A DNA stretch of 32,232 nt. It comes from Okeania sp. SIO3I5 (lineage in GTDB: Bacteria; Cyanobacteriota; Cyanobacteriia; Cyanobacteriales; Microcoleaceae). A program made the translations under genes and the position numbers. Positions 25,322-32,232 of the stretch are shown piece after piece. Positions within the stretch are counted from its first letter, which is position 1, and every line of letters begins with the position of its first letter. The DNA lies in the NCBI RefSeq assembly GCF_010672085.1, contig NZ_JAAHHT010000051.1, forward strand, positions 934 to 33,165, given 5' to 3'. The notes below the pieces were generated by a model. That model searched no databases and was not told the origin of the DNA. It worked only from the letters and a program-made list of their open reading frames with translations.

Positions 25322-26173
25322 ATGAAAGGTATTGTCCGCAAAACTAGCAGGGTTAGTAATTGGCTAACCGTAGTGAATAATCATTGGTTAGTTAATCTAA
25401 ACCTGTTATTCACATTAGTAAGAAGAGACTTGGAAGCAAGATATAAAGGCTCAATTCTTGGCAATTTATGGCCACTACTCAATCAGCTATCCCAACTTTT
25501 AATTTATACCTACGTCTTCTCAATTATTCTTAAAGTTAAGCTTGACCTAAAAGGATTACCAGAAGATAGTAAACTAACTTTTGGATTATGGTTATTTGCA
25601 GGATTAATACCCTGGTTAGCTTTTACGAGTGGATTGACTCAAGCTTCTGGTTCCGTAATTACACAGCCTAATTTAGTTAAAAAAGTAGTTTTTCCCCTTA
25701 GTTTATTACCCTTAGTTCCGATTCTTTCAACATTTATAGAAAGTACATTTGGATTAATAGTTTTAACAGGAATGTTTTATATATCATCCGGGGCGATAAA
25801 TCAAACATTATGGTTACTACCGATAGTGTTTATACCTCAGCTTTTATTAACAGCAGGTTTAGGATATTTTACTGCTGGATTAACAGTATTTTTGCGAGAT
25901 ATTCCACAAACTTTAGGAGTAATTATTAATCTTTGGTTTTACGTTACACCAATAGTATATCCAGCATCAGTAATTCCAGAAAATTGGCGAATTTGGGTAT
26001 TTTGGTGTAATCCTTTAACAGCGATCGCTGAAGTATATCGTGACCTAGTATTAATAGGAGAAATTAAACACTGGGGAGAATTAGCAATTTCTGGTTTAAT
26101 CTCTGTACTAATATTTTATTTTGGCTTTTGGGTTTATCAAAAATTGCGTCCTGCTTTTGCTGATGTTTTATGA
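25322..26173 (+). CDS. wzm: ABC-2-type polysaccharide/O-antigen export permease (Wzm/KpsM/TagG family)
   Basis: The track ORF starts at 25268, inside a heptamer array. A more likely start is the ATG at 25322 (MKGIVRK...). 'LVRRDLEARYKGSILGNLWPLLNQL' is the ABC-2 signature N-terminal region. Six hydrophobic segments are present. It is followed by a Wzt-like ATPase. The symbol is inferred from context and is not certain. Confidence 0.75.
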   Translation: MKGIVRKTSRVSNWLTVVNNHWLVNLNLLFTLVRRDLEARYKGSILGNLWPLLNQLSQLLIYTYVFSIILKVKLDLKGLPEDSKLTFGLWLFAGLIPWLAFTSGLTQASGSVITQPNLVKKVVFPLSLLPLVPILSTFIESTFGLIVLTGMFYISSGAINQTLWLLPIVFIPQLLLTAGLGYFTAGLTVFLRDIPQTLGVIINLWFYVTPIVYPASVIPENWRIWVFWCNPLTAIAEVYRDLVLIGEIKHWGELAISGLISVLIFYFGFWVYQKLRPAFADVL

Positions 26174-26210
26174 GTAAGCATTCAGCATTCAGCCATCAGC
26201 TATTAGCTAT

Positions 26211-29062: not shown

Positions 29063-32000
29063 ATGAATGCTGAAAAAATAGATTTCAATAATAACTTAAT
29101 TATAAATAATTTTATTCAAGACCAAACTAGAAAACCTGAAAAAATTAACGTAAAAATTCATCCACAAGATGAAATGTATCTCTATGCTTTGAAAAATACA
29201 AATGGCAGGAAAGATGAAGCTTTACTACGATATTTTTCTAATGGTAAAAGAATTTTAGATGCGGTTAAACAAATTGTAGAATGGTATTTTGATGGCTTTG
29301 AAAATATATCATCTTTTCTAGATTTTGCTAGTGGTTATGGGCGTTTTAGTAGGTTTTTGCTCCAGGAAATACCGAACAATAAAATATGGGTTTCCGATAT
29401 TTATTCTGCAGCAGTAGAATTTCAAAAACAACAGTTTGGTTTTGAGGGGATGGTTTCAACTACTTCTCCTGAAGATTATCAAATAAATCAAAAATTTGAC
29501 TGTATTTTTGCCTGTTCTTTTTTTAGTCATATTCCTCAAAAAACTTTTGCTGCTTGGTTAAAAAAATTATATAGTTGCTTAACTGAAAATGGCATATTAA
29601 TCTTTAGTACCCATGATTTATCTTTGATGACTATAGAGACAGATGTAGAAGCAGAAGAAATTTATTTTACTCCAGAAAGTGAAAGTCTTTTTCTGAAAAC
29701 TGAAGATTATGGAGTTACTTATGTTGGAAATAAATGGGTACGTAAAGTCATTGAAAAAGTAACTCAGGGAAAGGCAAAATGGCATCGAATTAAAAGAGGT
29801 CTTTGTGGATACCATGACTTATATATTATTTGGAATTCAGGAGTCAGGAGACAGGAAGCAGGAGACAGAAAACAGGAGTCAGGAGTCAGGAGTCAGGAGT
29901 CAGGAGTCTTCATGAAGTCAGAAGTTGGAACTCAGGAGACAGGAGACAGGAGACAGGAATCAGGAGTTAGGAGACAGGAGTCAAGAGTCTTTATCAAGTC
30001 AGAAGTTGGAACTCAGGAGACAGGAGTCAGGAGTCACAAGGAAGAAGTCTTGATAAATTCAGAAGTTGGAAGCAAGAATTCAGAACTCAGAACTCAGAAC
30101 TCAGAACCTTTTATCAACTCAGAAGTTGGAAATCAGAGGTTAAAAATTGCAGAACAAATAGATGAGTTATTAAACTTTCATTGTCATCCTGATGGAGGTT
30201 GCAAACAAATTAAAATGACAGTCACGGGAGACATTTATTTAGAGGGATGGGCAGCAGATATTAATCCAGAAGAAAAGGTAGAAAAAATATCAATTTTAAT
30301 CAATGGGAAGGAAGTAGAAAGTTGTTACCCGAAATATAAAAGTCAAACTCAAAAGTATCAATGGTCTTGTACTATTGATGGTCACAATTTATTAGCAGAT
30401 GACGTTATCCTGGTGAAAATTATTAATAATTTTCTTTTAGAGCGAGTAGTTAATATTTATCCCCTGAATACTATCGCATTACTCCCACCAAATCATCTGT
30501 TATTAAGAATAAGTGGCAACCCTAGTGCGAAGGCTTTTCTTAGTTCGTTTGATGACCTTAGATATACAGTAAAAAATTATCTCCAAACAGCAGGATTTGA
30601 TTTTAATCAATTTGACAATATATTAGATTTTGGTTGTGGAGTAGGACGTTATTTAATGGCATTTGAACCTGAACTTTTGCCTAATCAAAAACTCTTTGGT
30701 TGTGATGTTTTTGCCGAATGTGCTGAATGGTGTCAAGAAAATATTAAATTTGCTACGGTCAAACATAACGATATTCAACCACCATTACCTTTTGAAAATA
30801 ATCAGTTTGATTTAATTAATTCTATCTCGGTATTTACTCATTTAAGTATAGATTTACAACATCTTTGGGCGTGGGAAATTTATCGAGTTTTGCGTCCTGG
30901 GGGAATATTATTTATGACTCTTCACGGACCTCAATTTTTTCCGATAGTTTATGATATTTTTCTGAATGGTAATGCTCATAAAGCGGAAATGTATAGTATT
31001 GGTGAAGAGGGATTATTTTTATATCTTGACCATGAGGGAGAAATAGATGGTCAAGGTCAACGTACTATTGCAGCAGTTCATACACCTGCAGCTTATCAGG
31101 AAATATTTTCTATGTTTAAACACATTAAAAGATTTCCTCAAAGTAATTTGGCAAATGGGCAAGATTTATATATTTTACAAAAGCCAATTTCTGGAGGTTT
31201 AGTTGCTCAACCTCTTAGTATGAATTCAGAATTTAGAATTCTGAATTCAGAAGTTTTGATTGACTCAGAATTCACAACTGAGAATTTAGAAGTGAAAAAT
31301 TTTGCCAAAATGGAAGAGGTGAGAAATATAGAATCAGAATTCAAAACTGAGAATTTAGAAGTTAAGAATTTGAGTAAATCGGAAGAGGTGGGAAATATAG
31401 AATCAGAATTTACAAATGAGAATTTAGAAGTTAATAATTTAGGCAAAACGGAAGAGGTGGGAAATATAGAATCAGAATTTACAAATGAGAATTTAGAAGT
31501 TAATAATTTAGGCAAAATGGAAGAGGTGGGAAATATAGAATCAGAATTCAAAACTGAGAATTTAGAAGTTAAGAACTTAGGCAAAACGGAAGAGGTGGGA
31601 AATGCCAAGGAAGAAATAATCGGAAAGATTAACTCGGCAGTCGTAAGTCAGAATTTAGAAGTGAAAAATTTAGGCAAAACGGAAGAGGTGGAAAATATAG
31701 AATCAGAATTCAAAACTGAGAATTTAGAAGTTAAGAATTTGGGCAAAACGGAAGAGGTGGAAAATATAGAATCAGAATTCAAAACTGAGAATTTAGAAGT
31801 TAAGAATTTAGGCAAAACGCAAGGTGTGGGAAATGGCAAGGAAGAAATAATCGGAAAGATCAACTCAGAATTCAAAACTGAGAATTTAGAAGTGAAAAAT
31901 TTAGGCAAAACGGAAGAGGTGGGAAATATAGAATCAGAATTTACAAATGAGAATTTAGAAGTTAATAATTTAGGCAAAACGGAAGAGGTGGGAAATATAG

Positions 32001-32232
32001 AATCAGAATTTACAAATGAGAATTTAGAAGTTAATAATTTAGGCAAAATGGAAGAGGTGGGAAATATAGAATCAGAATTCAAAACTGAGAATTTAGAAGT
32101 TAAGAACTTAGGCAAAACGGAAGAGGTGGGAAATGCCAAGGAAGAAATAATCGGAAAGATTAACTCGGCAGTCGTAAGTCAGAATTTAGAAGTGAAAAAT
32201 TTAGGCAAAACGGAAGAGGTGGAAAATATAGA
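29063..32232 (+). CDS. 3'-partial ORF (at least 1056 codons, no stop before the window end): two tandem class-I SAM-dependent methyltransferase domains, an STRR-derived linker and a C-terminal tandem-repeat tail; candidate glycan chain terminator (WbdD-like)
   Basis: This ORF is absent from the supplied track because it has no in-window stop. I translated it manually: first ATG after the upstream stop (TAA at 29003) is at 29063, and the frame stays open to 32232. MT domain 1 has 'FLDFASGYGRFSRFL' (motif I) and 'FDCIFACSFFSHI' (motif II). MT domain 2 has 'ILDFGCGVGRYLMAF', 'FDLINSISVFTHL' and 'LRPGGILFMTLHG'. The linker at 29835-30130 is made of CAGGAGT/CAGGAGA and CTCAGAA heptamers kept in frame. 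From about 31217 onward the sequence is 69-bp (23-aa) tandem repeats 'NIESEFKTENLEVKNLGKTEEVG'. Confidence 0.75.
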   Translation, partial: MNAEKIDFNNNLIINNFIQDQTRKPEKINVKIHPQDEMYLYALKNTNGRKDEALLRYFSNGKRILDAVKQIVEWYFDGFENISSFLDFASGYGRFSRFLLQEIPNNKIWVSDIYSAAVEFQKQQFGFEGMVSTTSPEDYQINQKFDCIFACSFFSHIPQKTFAAWLKKLYSCLTENGILIFSTHDLSLMTIETDVEAEEIYFTPESESLFLKTEDYGVTYVGNKWVRKVIEKVTQGKAKWHRIKRGLCGYHDLYIIWNSGVRRQEAGDRKQESGVRSQESGVFMKSEVGTQETGDRRQESGVRRQESRVFIKSEVGTQETGVRSHKEEVLINSEVGSKNSELRTQNSEPFINSEVGNQRLKIAEQIDELLNFHCHPDGGCKQIKMTVTGDIYLEGWAADINPEEKVEKISILINGKEVESCYPKYKSQTQKYQWSCTIDGHNLLADDVILVKIINNFLLERVVNIYPLNTIALLPPNHLLLRISGNPSAKAFLSSFDDLRYTVKNYLQTAGFDFNQFDNILDFGCGVGRYLMAFEPELLPNQKLFGCDVFAECAEWCQENIKFATVKHNDIQPPLPFENNQFDLINSISVFTHLSIDLQHLWAWEIYRVLRPGGILFMTLHGPQFFPIVYDIFLNGNAHKAEMYSIGEEGLFLYLDHEGEIDGQGQRTIAAVHTPAAYQEIFSMFKHIKRFPQSNLANGQDLYILQKPISGGLVAQPLSMNSEFRILNSEVLIDSEFTTENLEVKNFAKMEEVRNIESEFKTENLEVKNLSKSEEVGNIESEFTNENLEVNNLGKTEEVGNIESEFTNENLEVNNLGKMEEVGNIESEFKTENLEVKNLGKTEEVGNAKEEIIGKINSAVVSQNLEVKNLGKTEEVENIESEFKTENLEVKNLGKTEEVENIESEFKTENLEVKNLGKTQGVGNGKEEIIGKINSEFKTENLEVKNLGKTEEVGNIESEFTNENLEVNNLGKTEEVGNIESEFTNENLEVNNLGKMEEVGNIESEFKTENLEVKNLGKTEEVGNAKEEIIGKINSAVVSQNLEVKNLGKTEEVENI
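31207..32232 (+). repeat. In-frame 69-bp tandem repeats (about 14 copies in window) organised in a ~441-bp higher-order repeat; they continue past the window end
   Basis: 31207-31608 and 31648-32139 are near-identical, which is why the track reports two near-identical antisense ORFs there. The 69-bp units encode 'NIESEF(K/T)(T/N)ENLEV(K/N)NLGK(T/M)EEVG'. Periodic variant units encode 'NAKEEIIGKINSAVVSQNLEVKNLGKTEEVE'. Confidence 0.8.

Follow-up and report, generated by a model that had tools for sequence, protein, structure and literature searches.

Acidic repeats of a dual methyltransferase in a cyanobacterial ABC-transporter-dependent glycan locus are predicted to be disordered interdomain linkers

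Introduction

WbdD, the chain terminator of Escherichia coli O9a/O8 and Klebsiella O3/O5, is a methyltransferase or methyltransferase-kinase with a coiled-coil ruler. In Klebsiella pneumoniae, O12 WbbB and O7 ORF6 are single proteins that combine a terminator, a coiled-coil ruler, and a glycosyltransferase (GT) polymerase (PMC11231755). In Synechocystis, the exporter genes slr0977/slr0982 (wzm/wzt) are associated with a methyltransferase, slr1610, which was proposed to terminate the chain and to mark it for export (PMC3769361). Here, we describe a locus comparable to these on a contig of Okeania sp. SIO3I5 (NZ_JAAHHT010000051.1). The window, meaning the whole stretch of DNA that was analyzed (32,232 nt), has as its final part the region of interest, positions 25322–32232, with three genes on the + strand: wzm, wzt, and an open reading frame (ORF) with two methyltransferase domains, referred to below as the dual methyltransferase. 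An earlier note on this DNA had called the same three genes, and each was found at the same position by its Pfam domains. The note had taken the product of the third gene for a WbdD-like chain terminator, whose acidic repeats, seen as a C-terminal tail, might serve as a ruler of chain length.

Trichodesmium and Okeania are ecologically important, bloom-forming, nitrogen-fixing marine cyanobacteria, whose polysaccharides, on the cell surface and in colonies, influence aggregation, the capture of metals, and the way the cells interact with phages and grazers. Judged by gene content, the region belongs to a polysaccharide locus of the ABC-transporter-dependent type that is conserved in marine filamentous Microcoleaceae (Okeania, Trichodesmium, and Dapis) and of which it forms the 5′ part; the surface polysaccharide is probably sulfated and methylated. 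This makes the locus a candidate for the production of a sulfated, methylated glycan by the ABC-transporter route. Our best overall explanation, to which we assign a probability of about 0.6, is a conserved locus for glycan assembly and export in which the dual methyltransferase carries disordered linkers and the ruler, if there is one, lies in the neighboring protein. In favor of this explanation, Trichodesmium is rich in sulfotransferases (PMC8205485).

Results and Discussion

The ORF of the dual methyltransferase starts with the ATG at 29063 on the + strand and is open through the last base of the window, so that 1056 aa are encoded there. It is 100% identical to an NCBI protein of exactly 1056 aa, “methyltransferase, partial [Okeania sp. 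SIO3I5]”. Pfam places two class I S-adenosylmethionine (SAM)-dependent methyltransferase domains at aa 80–190 and 515–620. The first of them, MT1 (aa 1–256; 29063–29830; Methyltransf_12/23 at aa 80–190), has the motif LDFASGYGR, which is invariant in 13 orthologs. Linker 1 (aa 257–368; 29831–30166) follows as a degenerate heptanucleotide array, found with Tandem Repeats Finder (TRF), that is translated in frame. After it come a middle domain of the immunoglobulin (Ig)/FN3-like beta-sandwich type (aa 369–476; 30167–30490) and the second methyltransferase domain, MT2 (aa 477–717; 30491–31213; Methyltransf_25/11 at aa 520–617), whose motif LDFGCGVGR is invariant in the ortholog alignment. The last element is linker 2 (aa 718 to at least 1056; 31214–32232), acidic repeats of 23 and 31 aa that are cut by the contig end. 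No signal peptide or transmembrane segment is evident in the sequence, no NCBIfam family reached its curated cut-off, and a PDB sequence search returned only generic class I methyltransferases (E ≥ 3e-4).

What the repeats are becomes clear from relatives. Forty further proteins matched the ORF, approximately 28 of them full or partial orthologs from Okeania, Trichodesmium, Dapis, and other Microcoleaceae. The complete orthologs (745–1118 aa) align in the order MT1, linker 1, a conserved domain of ~110 aa, MT2, linker 2, and a conserved C-terminal domain (CTD) of 105 aa that carries …QTEIKFQIEGQKRFRVYPQIEP…VLVSWNFANFA. The folded domains are 70–85% identical across genera, whereas the linkers are unalignable. 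Linker 1 ranges from 12 to 201 aa and linker 2 from 23 to 307 aa, always in frame with the CTD; at 338 aa or more, linker 2 of the window is the longest seen. In the shortest orthologs, P0024 and P0028, MT2 and the CTD are separated by 23 aa without repeats. The repeats are not, therefore, the C-terminal tail described earlier: in the orthologs they connect to a conserved C-terminal beta-sandwich domain. The SIO3I5 record ends before the CTD that orthologs carry after linker 2, and a scan of genome contigs with the CTD returned no SIO3I5 contig. Look-ups by exact sequence with the Wzt of the window and with the partial methyltransferase (P0001) likewise matched no indexed contig.

The CTD itself is uncommon: a search of 1.84 billion proteins gave 18 representatives at E ≤ 0.001. 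Where the scanned matches were long enough to judge, it always stood C-terminal to an MT2-like methyltransferase, and MT2 is homologous to proteins of ~370 aa that have one methyltransferase domain and this CTD. Because distant homologs (346–409 aa) usually hold the CTD and the MT2-like domain directly joined, MT2 and the CTD appear to be an old two-domain unit, and the repeats of the Okeania clade would have been inserted at its hinge.

The linkers would have arisen by in-frame tandem duplication of linker DNA, tolerated at domain boundaries, and would expand and contract between close strains. The amplified piece is NLEVKNFG…GN(AKEEIIGKINS) in the window, P0002, and P0004, and the 32-aa QVTTEVDELPLSDNQETENLPQKILSETQSNK in P0010, P0006, and P0014; on the sequences compared, lineages amplified different pieces of the ancestral linker. 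The earlier prediction that copy number would vary among strains is borne out. In a Trichodesmium cluster at 90% identity, complete alleles measure 783, 819, 850, and 943 aa; among the last three, sequence identity beyond the array is 98–100%, and their lengths are set apart by whole 31-aa units. In Okeania, an allele of 938 aa has 22 aa inserted in linker 1 relative to one of 916 aa, the pair being 98.9% identical. Such changes resemble those of the variable-number tandem-repeat linkers of bacterial proteins, in which in-frame units are gained or lost between close strains. Unlike those, the repeats here lie in a cytoplasmic biosynthetic enzyme rather than a surface protein, and part of them belongs to a genome-wide heptanucleotide repeat that invades unrelated genes.

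In the window, linker 2 can be parsed into nine 23-aa units (NLEVKNLGKTEEVGNIESEFKTE), three 31-aa units (…GNAKEEIIGKINSAVVSQ), and one partial unit. The acidic tract of at least 340 aa reported earlier is thus real, but its units are not all of 23 aa. TRF gives a 69-bp period over 31265–32134, with higher-order periods of 231 and 300 bp, and a 30-nt probe from a linker 2 unit has 11 matches, compared with 0 expected by chance. Glu makes up 24% of the tract and Asn 16%, and over 321 aa its net charge is −42. When the repeats alone were used as the query of a homology search, no protein was retrieved at E ≤ 0.001, not even the one they come from, and we suspect that composition filtering explains the empty result.

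Could the repeats in the window be untranslated, or an artifact of assembly? They might belong to a pseudogene, to a collapsed or chimeric array, or to an intergenic tandem repeat that is open by chance. The last 322 nt (31911–32232) are an exact copy of 31380–31701, 531 nt upstream; from this duplicate, and from the NCBI “partial” entry of exactly 1056 aa, we infer that the contig and the window end inside a tandem array that the assembly did not resolve. A graph loop may account for approximately 107 aa of the “340-aa tail”, or else the true array may be far longer. Moreover, variable sites among units fall at codon positions 1, 2, and 3 in numbers of 3, 5, and 5, with no enrichment at third positions, and one minus-strand frame is open. 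Since a stop-free unit repeats itself, and since the minus-strand frame is open too, an open frame in such an array is weak evidence of translation. We consider the repeats translated because at least 20 complete orthologs read equivalent repeats in frame into the conserved CTD, not because the array in the window is open. Other observations also speak against an artifact. Units of 69 and 93 bp, all multiples of 3 bp, keep the frame, while each unit has three stops in one of the two remaining + frames and four in the other; differences between alleles are whole units; and P0002, the closest complete ortholog, has the same NLEVKNFG...-type units as the window. Overall, an untranslated or artifactual array is extremely unlikely. 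Many copies of the gene in metagenome-assembled genomes (MAGs) are annotated as “partial”, and one contig of a relative (L016) starts 252 bp before the CTD; we read this as assemblies breaking repeatedly in the linker repeats, which explains the frequent annotation.

Linker 1 has a repeat tract of its own inside the ORF, at 29837–30107, which the earlier note did not mention. In it, the heptamer TCAGGAG forms a degenerate array, with (TCAGGAG)n and AGAACTC runs read in all three phases (…SGVRRQETGDRRQE…). TRF gives a period of 7 with 28 copies and a higher-order period of 81 bp; matches amount to 73%, and there are at most 4 perfect units. The same heptamer is found in an intergenic position at 13554–13588 (−), upstream of a vault-protein gene, with 0 matches expected by chance, and it is found as SGVRRQE/TGDRRQE peptides at many sites of an unrelated sulfatase-family protein (P0041). 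Evidently, short tandem repeats invade permissive coding sites in this lineage, and their presence in unrelated coding and intergenic sites therefore favors reading the linkers as tolerated expansions. A slip of one or two heptamer units in linker 1 would frameshift MT2 and the CTD. Phase variation by such slippage was not seen, in that the few alignments examined held no frameshifted alleles, and the array is degenerate.

To function as a ruler, the repeats would need to hold a fixed distance. AlphaFold was run on the C-terminal 428 aa of P0002, which is complete and has the unit family of the window. Its repeats have a predicted local distance difference test (pLDDT) score of ~27–30 and no secondary structure apart from one low-confidence helix of 22 residues, and its last 105 aa form a beta-sandwich (pLDDT 55–88). 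On a charge-hydropathy plot, the repeat tail falls on the disordered side (mean hydropathy 0.405 vs. a boundary of 0.460). The hydrophobic-residue spectrum of the repeats has no 3.5-residue periodicity (power 0.02), whereas the coiled coil of the neighboring protein, used as a positive control, peaks at 3.5 (4.19) and 7.0 (2.12). Nor do units of 23 aa that have Gly and Asn in each turn amount to heptad repeats. Consequently, the extended or coiled structure that had been expected for the repeats is not supported, and the acidic tracts are predicted to be intrinsically disordered interdomain linkers rather than a coiled-coil ruler. A disordered chain sets no fixed distance, which speaks against a ruler function.

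These results bear directly on the idea that the dual methyltransferase is a WbdD-like terminator, with the acidic repeats as a spacer for chain length and their copy number as the cause of phase- or strain-variable length. There are real similarities. Both enzymes are cytoplasmic, SAM-dependent methyltransferases whose genes lie next to wzm and a wzt that encodes a carbohydrate-binding domain (CBD), in an ABC-dependent glycan locus; here, the gene comes directly after wzt in the window and in each of the 18 related loci with a wzt. Copy number does vary between near-identical alleles, and a homolog of MT1 is part of WbdD-like proteins elsewhere, in which it is joined to a sulfotransferase and a coiled coil (see below). 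The methyltransferase of WbdD has a counterpart here, however, only in the generic fold. Unlike WbdD, the dual enzyme has two methyltransferase domains and two beta-sandwich modules, and where WbdD has a rigid coil, its element of variable length is predicted to be disordered. No kinase domain of the O9a WbdD type is found among its Pfam and NCBIfam matches, and in the shortest ortholog, MT1, the Ig-like domain, MT2, and the CTD together take up every residue. It has no WbdD-type coiled coil. A terminal amphipathic helix of the WbdD type, or a membrane anchor, which the earlier note had suggested looking for, is not present in the orthologs, which end in the 105-aa beta-sandwich instead (the C-terminus of the SIO3I5 protein is outside the record); the methyltransferase and Wzt_C profile matches that it also proposed to look for were found. 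No WbdD chain was matched in the PDB at E ≤ 0.01. Membership of the WbdD family was consequently rejected for the dual methyltransferase, while a role at the chain end, the other part of the earlier proposal, gains indirect support from the fusion proteins discussed below. As for the repeats, the tract leads to a folded domain, shrinks to just 23 aa in P0024 and P0028, and is missing where the CTD abuts MT2 in distant homologs, and a canonical coiled coil with a distal catalytic domain, the layout of a ruler, is encoded by the next gene. A WbdD-like terminator with a repeat-built ruler in the dual methyltransferase is very unlikely.

The enzyme is encoded beside a recognizable exporter. For comparison, we used 19 related loci, of which 17 with a syntenic wzm were compared, 18 have wzt, and 18 reach past the methyltransferase gene. 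The wzm gene (25322–26173, +) encodes an ABC-2 type polysaccharide exporter permease of 283 aa (PF01061 ABC2_membrane, E 4.5e-22) and is 83–95% identical to the syntenic gene; we take the ATG at 25322 as its start because orthologs are 283–284 aa long. The wzt gene (27185–28567, +), 88–96% identical across the 18 loci, encodes the exporter ATPase of 460 aa, in which a nucleotide-binding domain (NBD; aa 1–250) and an acidic linker (aa ~258–305) precede the C-terminal CBD. ABC_tran (PF00005) is matched at aa 43–175 (E 6e-23), and in the PDB the NBD matches the Aquifex aeolicus Wzt chains 8dku and 7k2t (E 1.6e-70). Within the C-terminal 200 aa, which might have proved unlike any known Wzt extension, lies a Wzt_C domain (PF14524; aa 313–449, nt 28121–28531; E 1.4e-25) at 90.4 bits against a curated cut-off of 30.4. 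With an ABC-2 permease, an NBD, and a Wzt_C domain, the pair has what defines a Wzm/Wzt exporter with a CBD, and the ABC-transporter-dependent glycan locus proposed earlier stands. ABC2_membrane, ABC_tran, and Wzt_C are common to these proteins and to the CBD-bearing Wzm-Wzt exporters of E. coli O9a and A. aeolicus (PDB 7k2t/8dku). Relative to those exporters, the Okeania Wzt has an additional low-complexity linker of ~50 aa between NBD and CBD, acidic and rich in Ser, Gln, and Glu (27956–28100). Its length is nearly constant among relatives, unlike that of the methyltransferase linkers.

We also considered whether the methyltransferase carries a copy of the transporter CBD. Comparison by hhalign of the middle domain with the Wzt CBD, and with the CTD of the methyltransferase, revealed no relationship (probabilities of 0.16–0.21 on a scale of 0–100), and the idea was dropped.

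While no glycosyltransferase is found among the genes of the 25-kb upstream part of the window, relatives have them immediately downstream of the methyltransferase gene. As far as the contigs reach, all 19 related loci share the order ruvB (minus strand), a small UCP020893 gene, wzm, wzt with Wzt_C, and the dual methyltransferase. In 18 out of the 18 that extend past it, a homologous giant gene follows at 20 bp to ~1.5 kb and brings the GT modules that the earlier note had expected nearby. In locus L003, the giant gene (L003:13275–19952, outside the window; equivalents in L002 and L004–L019) encodes 2225 aa, with Sulfotransfer_3 at aa 7–205, GT2 at aa 1047–1207 and ~1306–1543, and GT4 at aa 2024–2194. 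Behind the sulfotransferase lies a coiled coil of ~400 aa (aa ~290–680) built of 35-aa five-heptad repeats, LETELGKTQQxLDGTQVKLSESQNKISI. A “ISAMKSSKFWKLREKWFSLK” helix and two “GWC” domains, which we take to be beta-sandwiches from their sequence motifs, stand ahead of the GT2-GT2-GT4 modules. From the N-terminus to the first “GWC” domain, the giant measures 651–799 aa among the loci.

In relatives, then, the giant has the parts of a terminator, ruler, and polymerase protein: a modifying enzyme, a heptad coiled coil, and GT modules. In all characterized systems, the terminator is found at the coiled-coil ruler's distal end (PMC11231755), and by this rule the sulfotransferase of the giant is the best candidate for a terminator and its coiled coil the best candidate for a ruler. 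The idea of a repeat-built ruler of tunable length is a better fit to the giant than to the protein in the window. Like WbbB and O7 ORF6, the giant begins with a modifying enzyme and continues with a heptad coiled coil, Ig-like domains (O7 ORF6 also has an Ig-like putative carbohydrate-binding module), and GT modules in the order GT2-GT2-GT4. Unlike in those proteins, the distal enzyme is a sulfotransferase, not a 3-deoxy-D-manno-oct-2-ulosonic acid (Kdo) transferase or a methyltransferase-kinase, and the methyltransferase partner is a separate polypeptide, the product of the gene in the window; the giant lies outside the window, and its layout is a prediction from sequence. To our knowledge, no characterized system has a sulfotransferase in the terminator position. 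The arrangement also recalls slr0977/slr0982/slr1610 of Synechocystis, a cyanobacterial Wzm/Wzt cluster with an associated methyltransferase, but slr1610 is a single small enzyme, and the dual-domain proteins of 745–1118 aa are set apart from it by their architecture.

Evidence on the role of MT1 comes from fusion proteins of other cyanobacteria, found among the weaker matches to MT1 (P0031, 768 aa; P0034, 832 aa; L024:8001–10499). In these, an MT1 homolog (55% identical over 238 aa, E 9e-97, for MT1 against the N-terminus of P0031) is followed by a domain homologous to the Ig-like one (35% identical, E 7e-16), a sulfotransferase related by homology to the giant's N-terminus (E 9e-79), a coiled coil of ~100–150 aa, and a “AAMKSSKFWKMRTLWLHLK” (“AMKSSKFWK”) helix that matches the helix of the giant. 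On another cyanobacterial contig, a wzm/wzt (Wzt_C) pair is found at a distance of 5 kb from P0034. As predicted from these domains, P0031 and P0034 have a WbdD-like layout in which a sulfotransferase replaces the kinase. By the gene-fusion argument, MT1 and the Ig-like domain would act together with the sulfotransferase and the coiled coil; in the Okeania clade, gene order puts these putative partners on two adjacent polypeptides. It is mainly because of these fusions that a role of the dual methyltransferase at the chain end is plausible on sequence comparison, at somewhat less than even odds.

A competing explanation is that the dual methyltransferase decorates internal sugars only, that the signal read by the CBD comes from the sulfotransferase or another enzyme alone, and that the repeats are neutral linkers. 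The loci of relatives hold several further methyltransferases and sulfotransferases. Characterized terminators sit on the coiled-coil protein (PMC11231755), which here would be the giant. Four distant genes encoding the MT2 and CTD module were inspected for context, and two of the four, in favor of our own explanation, lie in sulfated-glycan loci with multi-GT giants: one (L020) beside wzm, a CBD-less wzt, genes for the synthesis of 3′-phosphoadenosine-5′-phosphosulfate (PAPS), a sulfotransferase, and an MT-GT2-GT2-GT4 giant, and the other (L023) beside sulfotransferase-GT4 and GT2-GT4 giants. The module of L020, paired with a CBD-less Wzt, fits internal decoration. On the other hand, the fusion of an MT1 homolog to sulfotransferase and coiled coil in P0031 and P0034 suggests a common substrate at the chain end, and the position right after wzt is invariant in every related locus containing wzt. 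We regard purely internal decoration as rather unlikely.

Taken as a conserved assembly and export locus, the system might operate as follows. By the established pathway, the GT2-GT2-GT4 modules would polymerize the chain at the cytoplasmic face, on a lipid carrier, and growth would stop once it extends to the sulfotransferase at the coiled coil's far end. The soluble dual methyltransferase would O-methylate the glycan while its beta-sandwich modules hold it. MT1 with the Ig-like domain would most likely act at the chain end, together with the sulfotransferase of the neighbor, and MT2 with the CTD, which is jelly-roll-like, could act at the chain end or on internal residues. The CBD of Wzt would then recognize the modified end, and Wzm/Wzt would export the chain.

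Several points weigh against this explanation. The function of the dual-methyltransferase group and its site of methylation are predictions from gene content. The giant and the CTD lie outside the window and the genome record, and their presence in SIO3I5 is deduced from relatives that are ~70–83% identical. Two of the four distant homologs of the MT2 and CTD module lie outside glycan loci, and the pairing with a CBD-less Wzt in L020 argues that the module has no obligatory link to cap recognition.

The most interesting features of the locus are the possible sulfate-based terminator and the series of natural alleles distinguished solely by the number of linker repeats; both are partly outside the window. 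It is improbable that linker length in the dual methyltransferase affects the glycan product, and the allele series could test whether linker length matters in a glycan-modifying enzyme. A more far-reaching idea, and a long shot, is that the chain end is both sulfated and O-methylated by a terminator split over two proteins, with the variable disordered tethers and the 35-aa-repeat coiled coil as tunable setters of reach. If this were true, gain or loss of repeats would alter glycan length or methylation between close Trichodesmium or Okeania strains, for example, under pressure from phages or grazers. For annotation, the practical message is that acidic repeats of this kind should not be read as coiled coil, and that “partial” genes in MAGs can result from assemblies that break in repeats.

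The spacers between the three genes also merit description. The wzm-wzt spacer (26174–27184) is 1011 bp long and the wzt-methyltransferase spacer (28568–29062) is 495 bp, so that of the two “1-kb MITE-filled” spacers (MITE, miniature inverted-repeat transposable element) of the earlier note, the short repeats are there while the size holds for one. Inverted and direct repeat analysis found short dispersed repeats in the first, including the inverted pair I13 (26184–26210/27144–27170, 89% complementary) and the direct repeat families D3, D4, D6, D7, and D8, which recur in other spacers. A promoter-like site in it (26815–26843) matches 11 of 12 positions, although the promoter and terminator scan was not decisive. 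The second, with a MITE-like layout, has inverted heptamer arrays at 28568–28599 and 29005–29036 (94% complementary, 405 nt between them) and a 42-nt unit duplicated at 28825 and 28896. Each spacer is bracketed at the gene ends by inverted TTATCAA/ATAATGG-type heptamer arrays that are 89–100% complementary, as is the case at 24591–24615/25285–25309, and the spacers have 40–80-nt pieces in common. From their sequence, repeat-filled and MITE-like is a fair description. They had been thought unusual for such a locus, but corresponding spacers of ~220–1100 bp make large, repeat-filled spacers normal for it across the clade. Trichodesmium genomes have an unusually low coding density.

The upstream 25 kb of the window holds genes unrelated to the glycan locus, including those for RuvB, a thioesterase, a TerB protein, a DUF815 ATPase, a major-vault-protein homolog, and a WD40 kinase. 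Rfam and tRNA scans of the window found nothing. The vault-protein gene (13657–16437, +) encodes a 926-aa protein homologous to eukaryotic major vault protein, whose Pfam matches to Vault repeats, Vault_2/3/4, and MVP_shoulder are strong, and is followed by genes for the DUF815 AAA ATPase (17977–19287) and the TerB-domain protein (19772–20218). Two further genes are unconnected with the glycan locus: one for an AAA_15/AAA_21 ATPase (5961–7172, +), related in Pfam to AbiEii/OLD-type ATPases, and one for a Ser/Thr kinase fused to seven WD40 repeats (10129–12510, +). Finally, between the thioesterase gene and ruvB are two near-identical ORFs of ~60 aa (22050–22244 and 22356–22538, both −), 306 bp apart, which look less like genes than like two copies of a dispersed repeat element.

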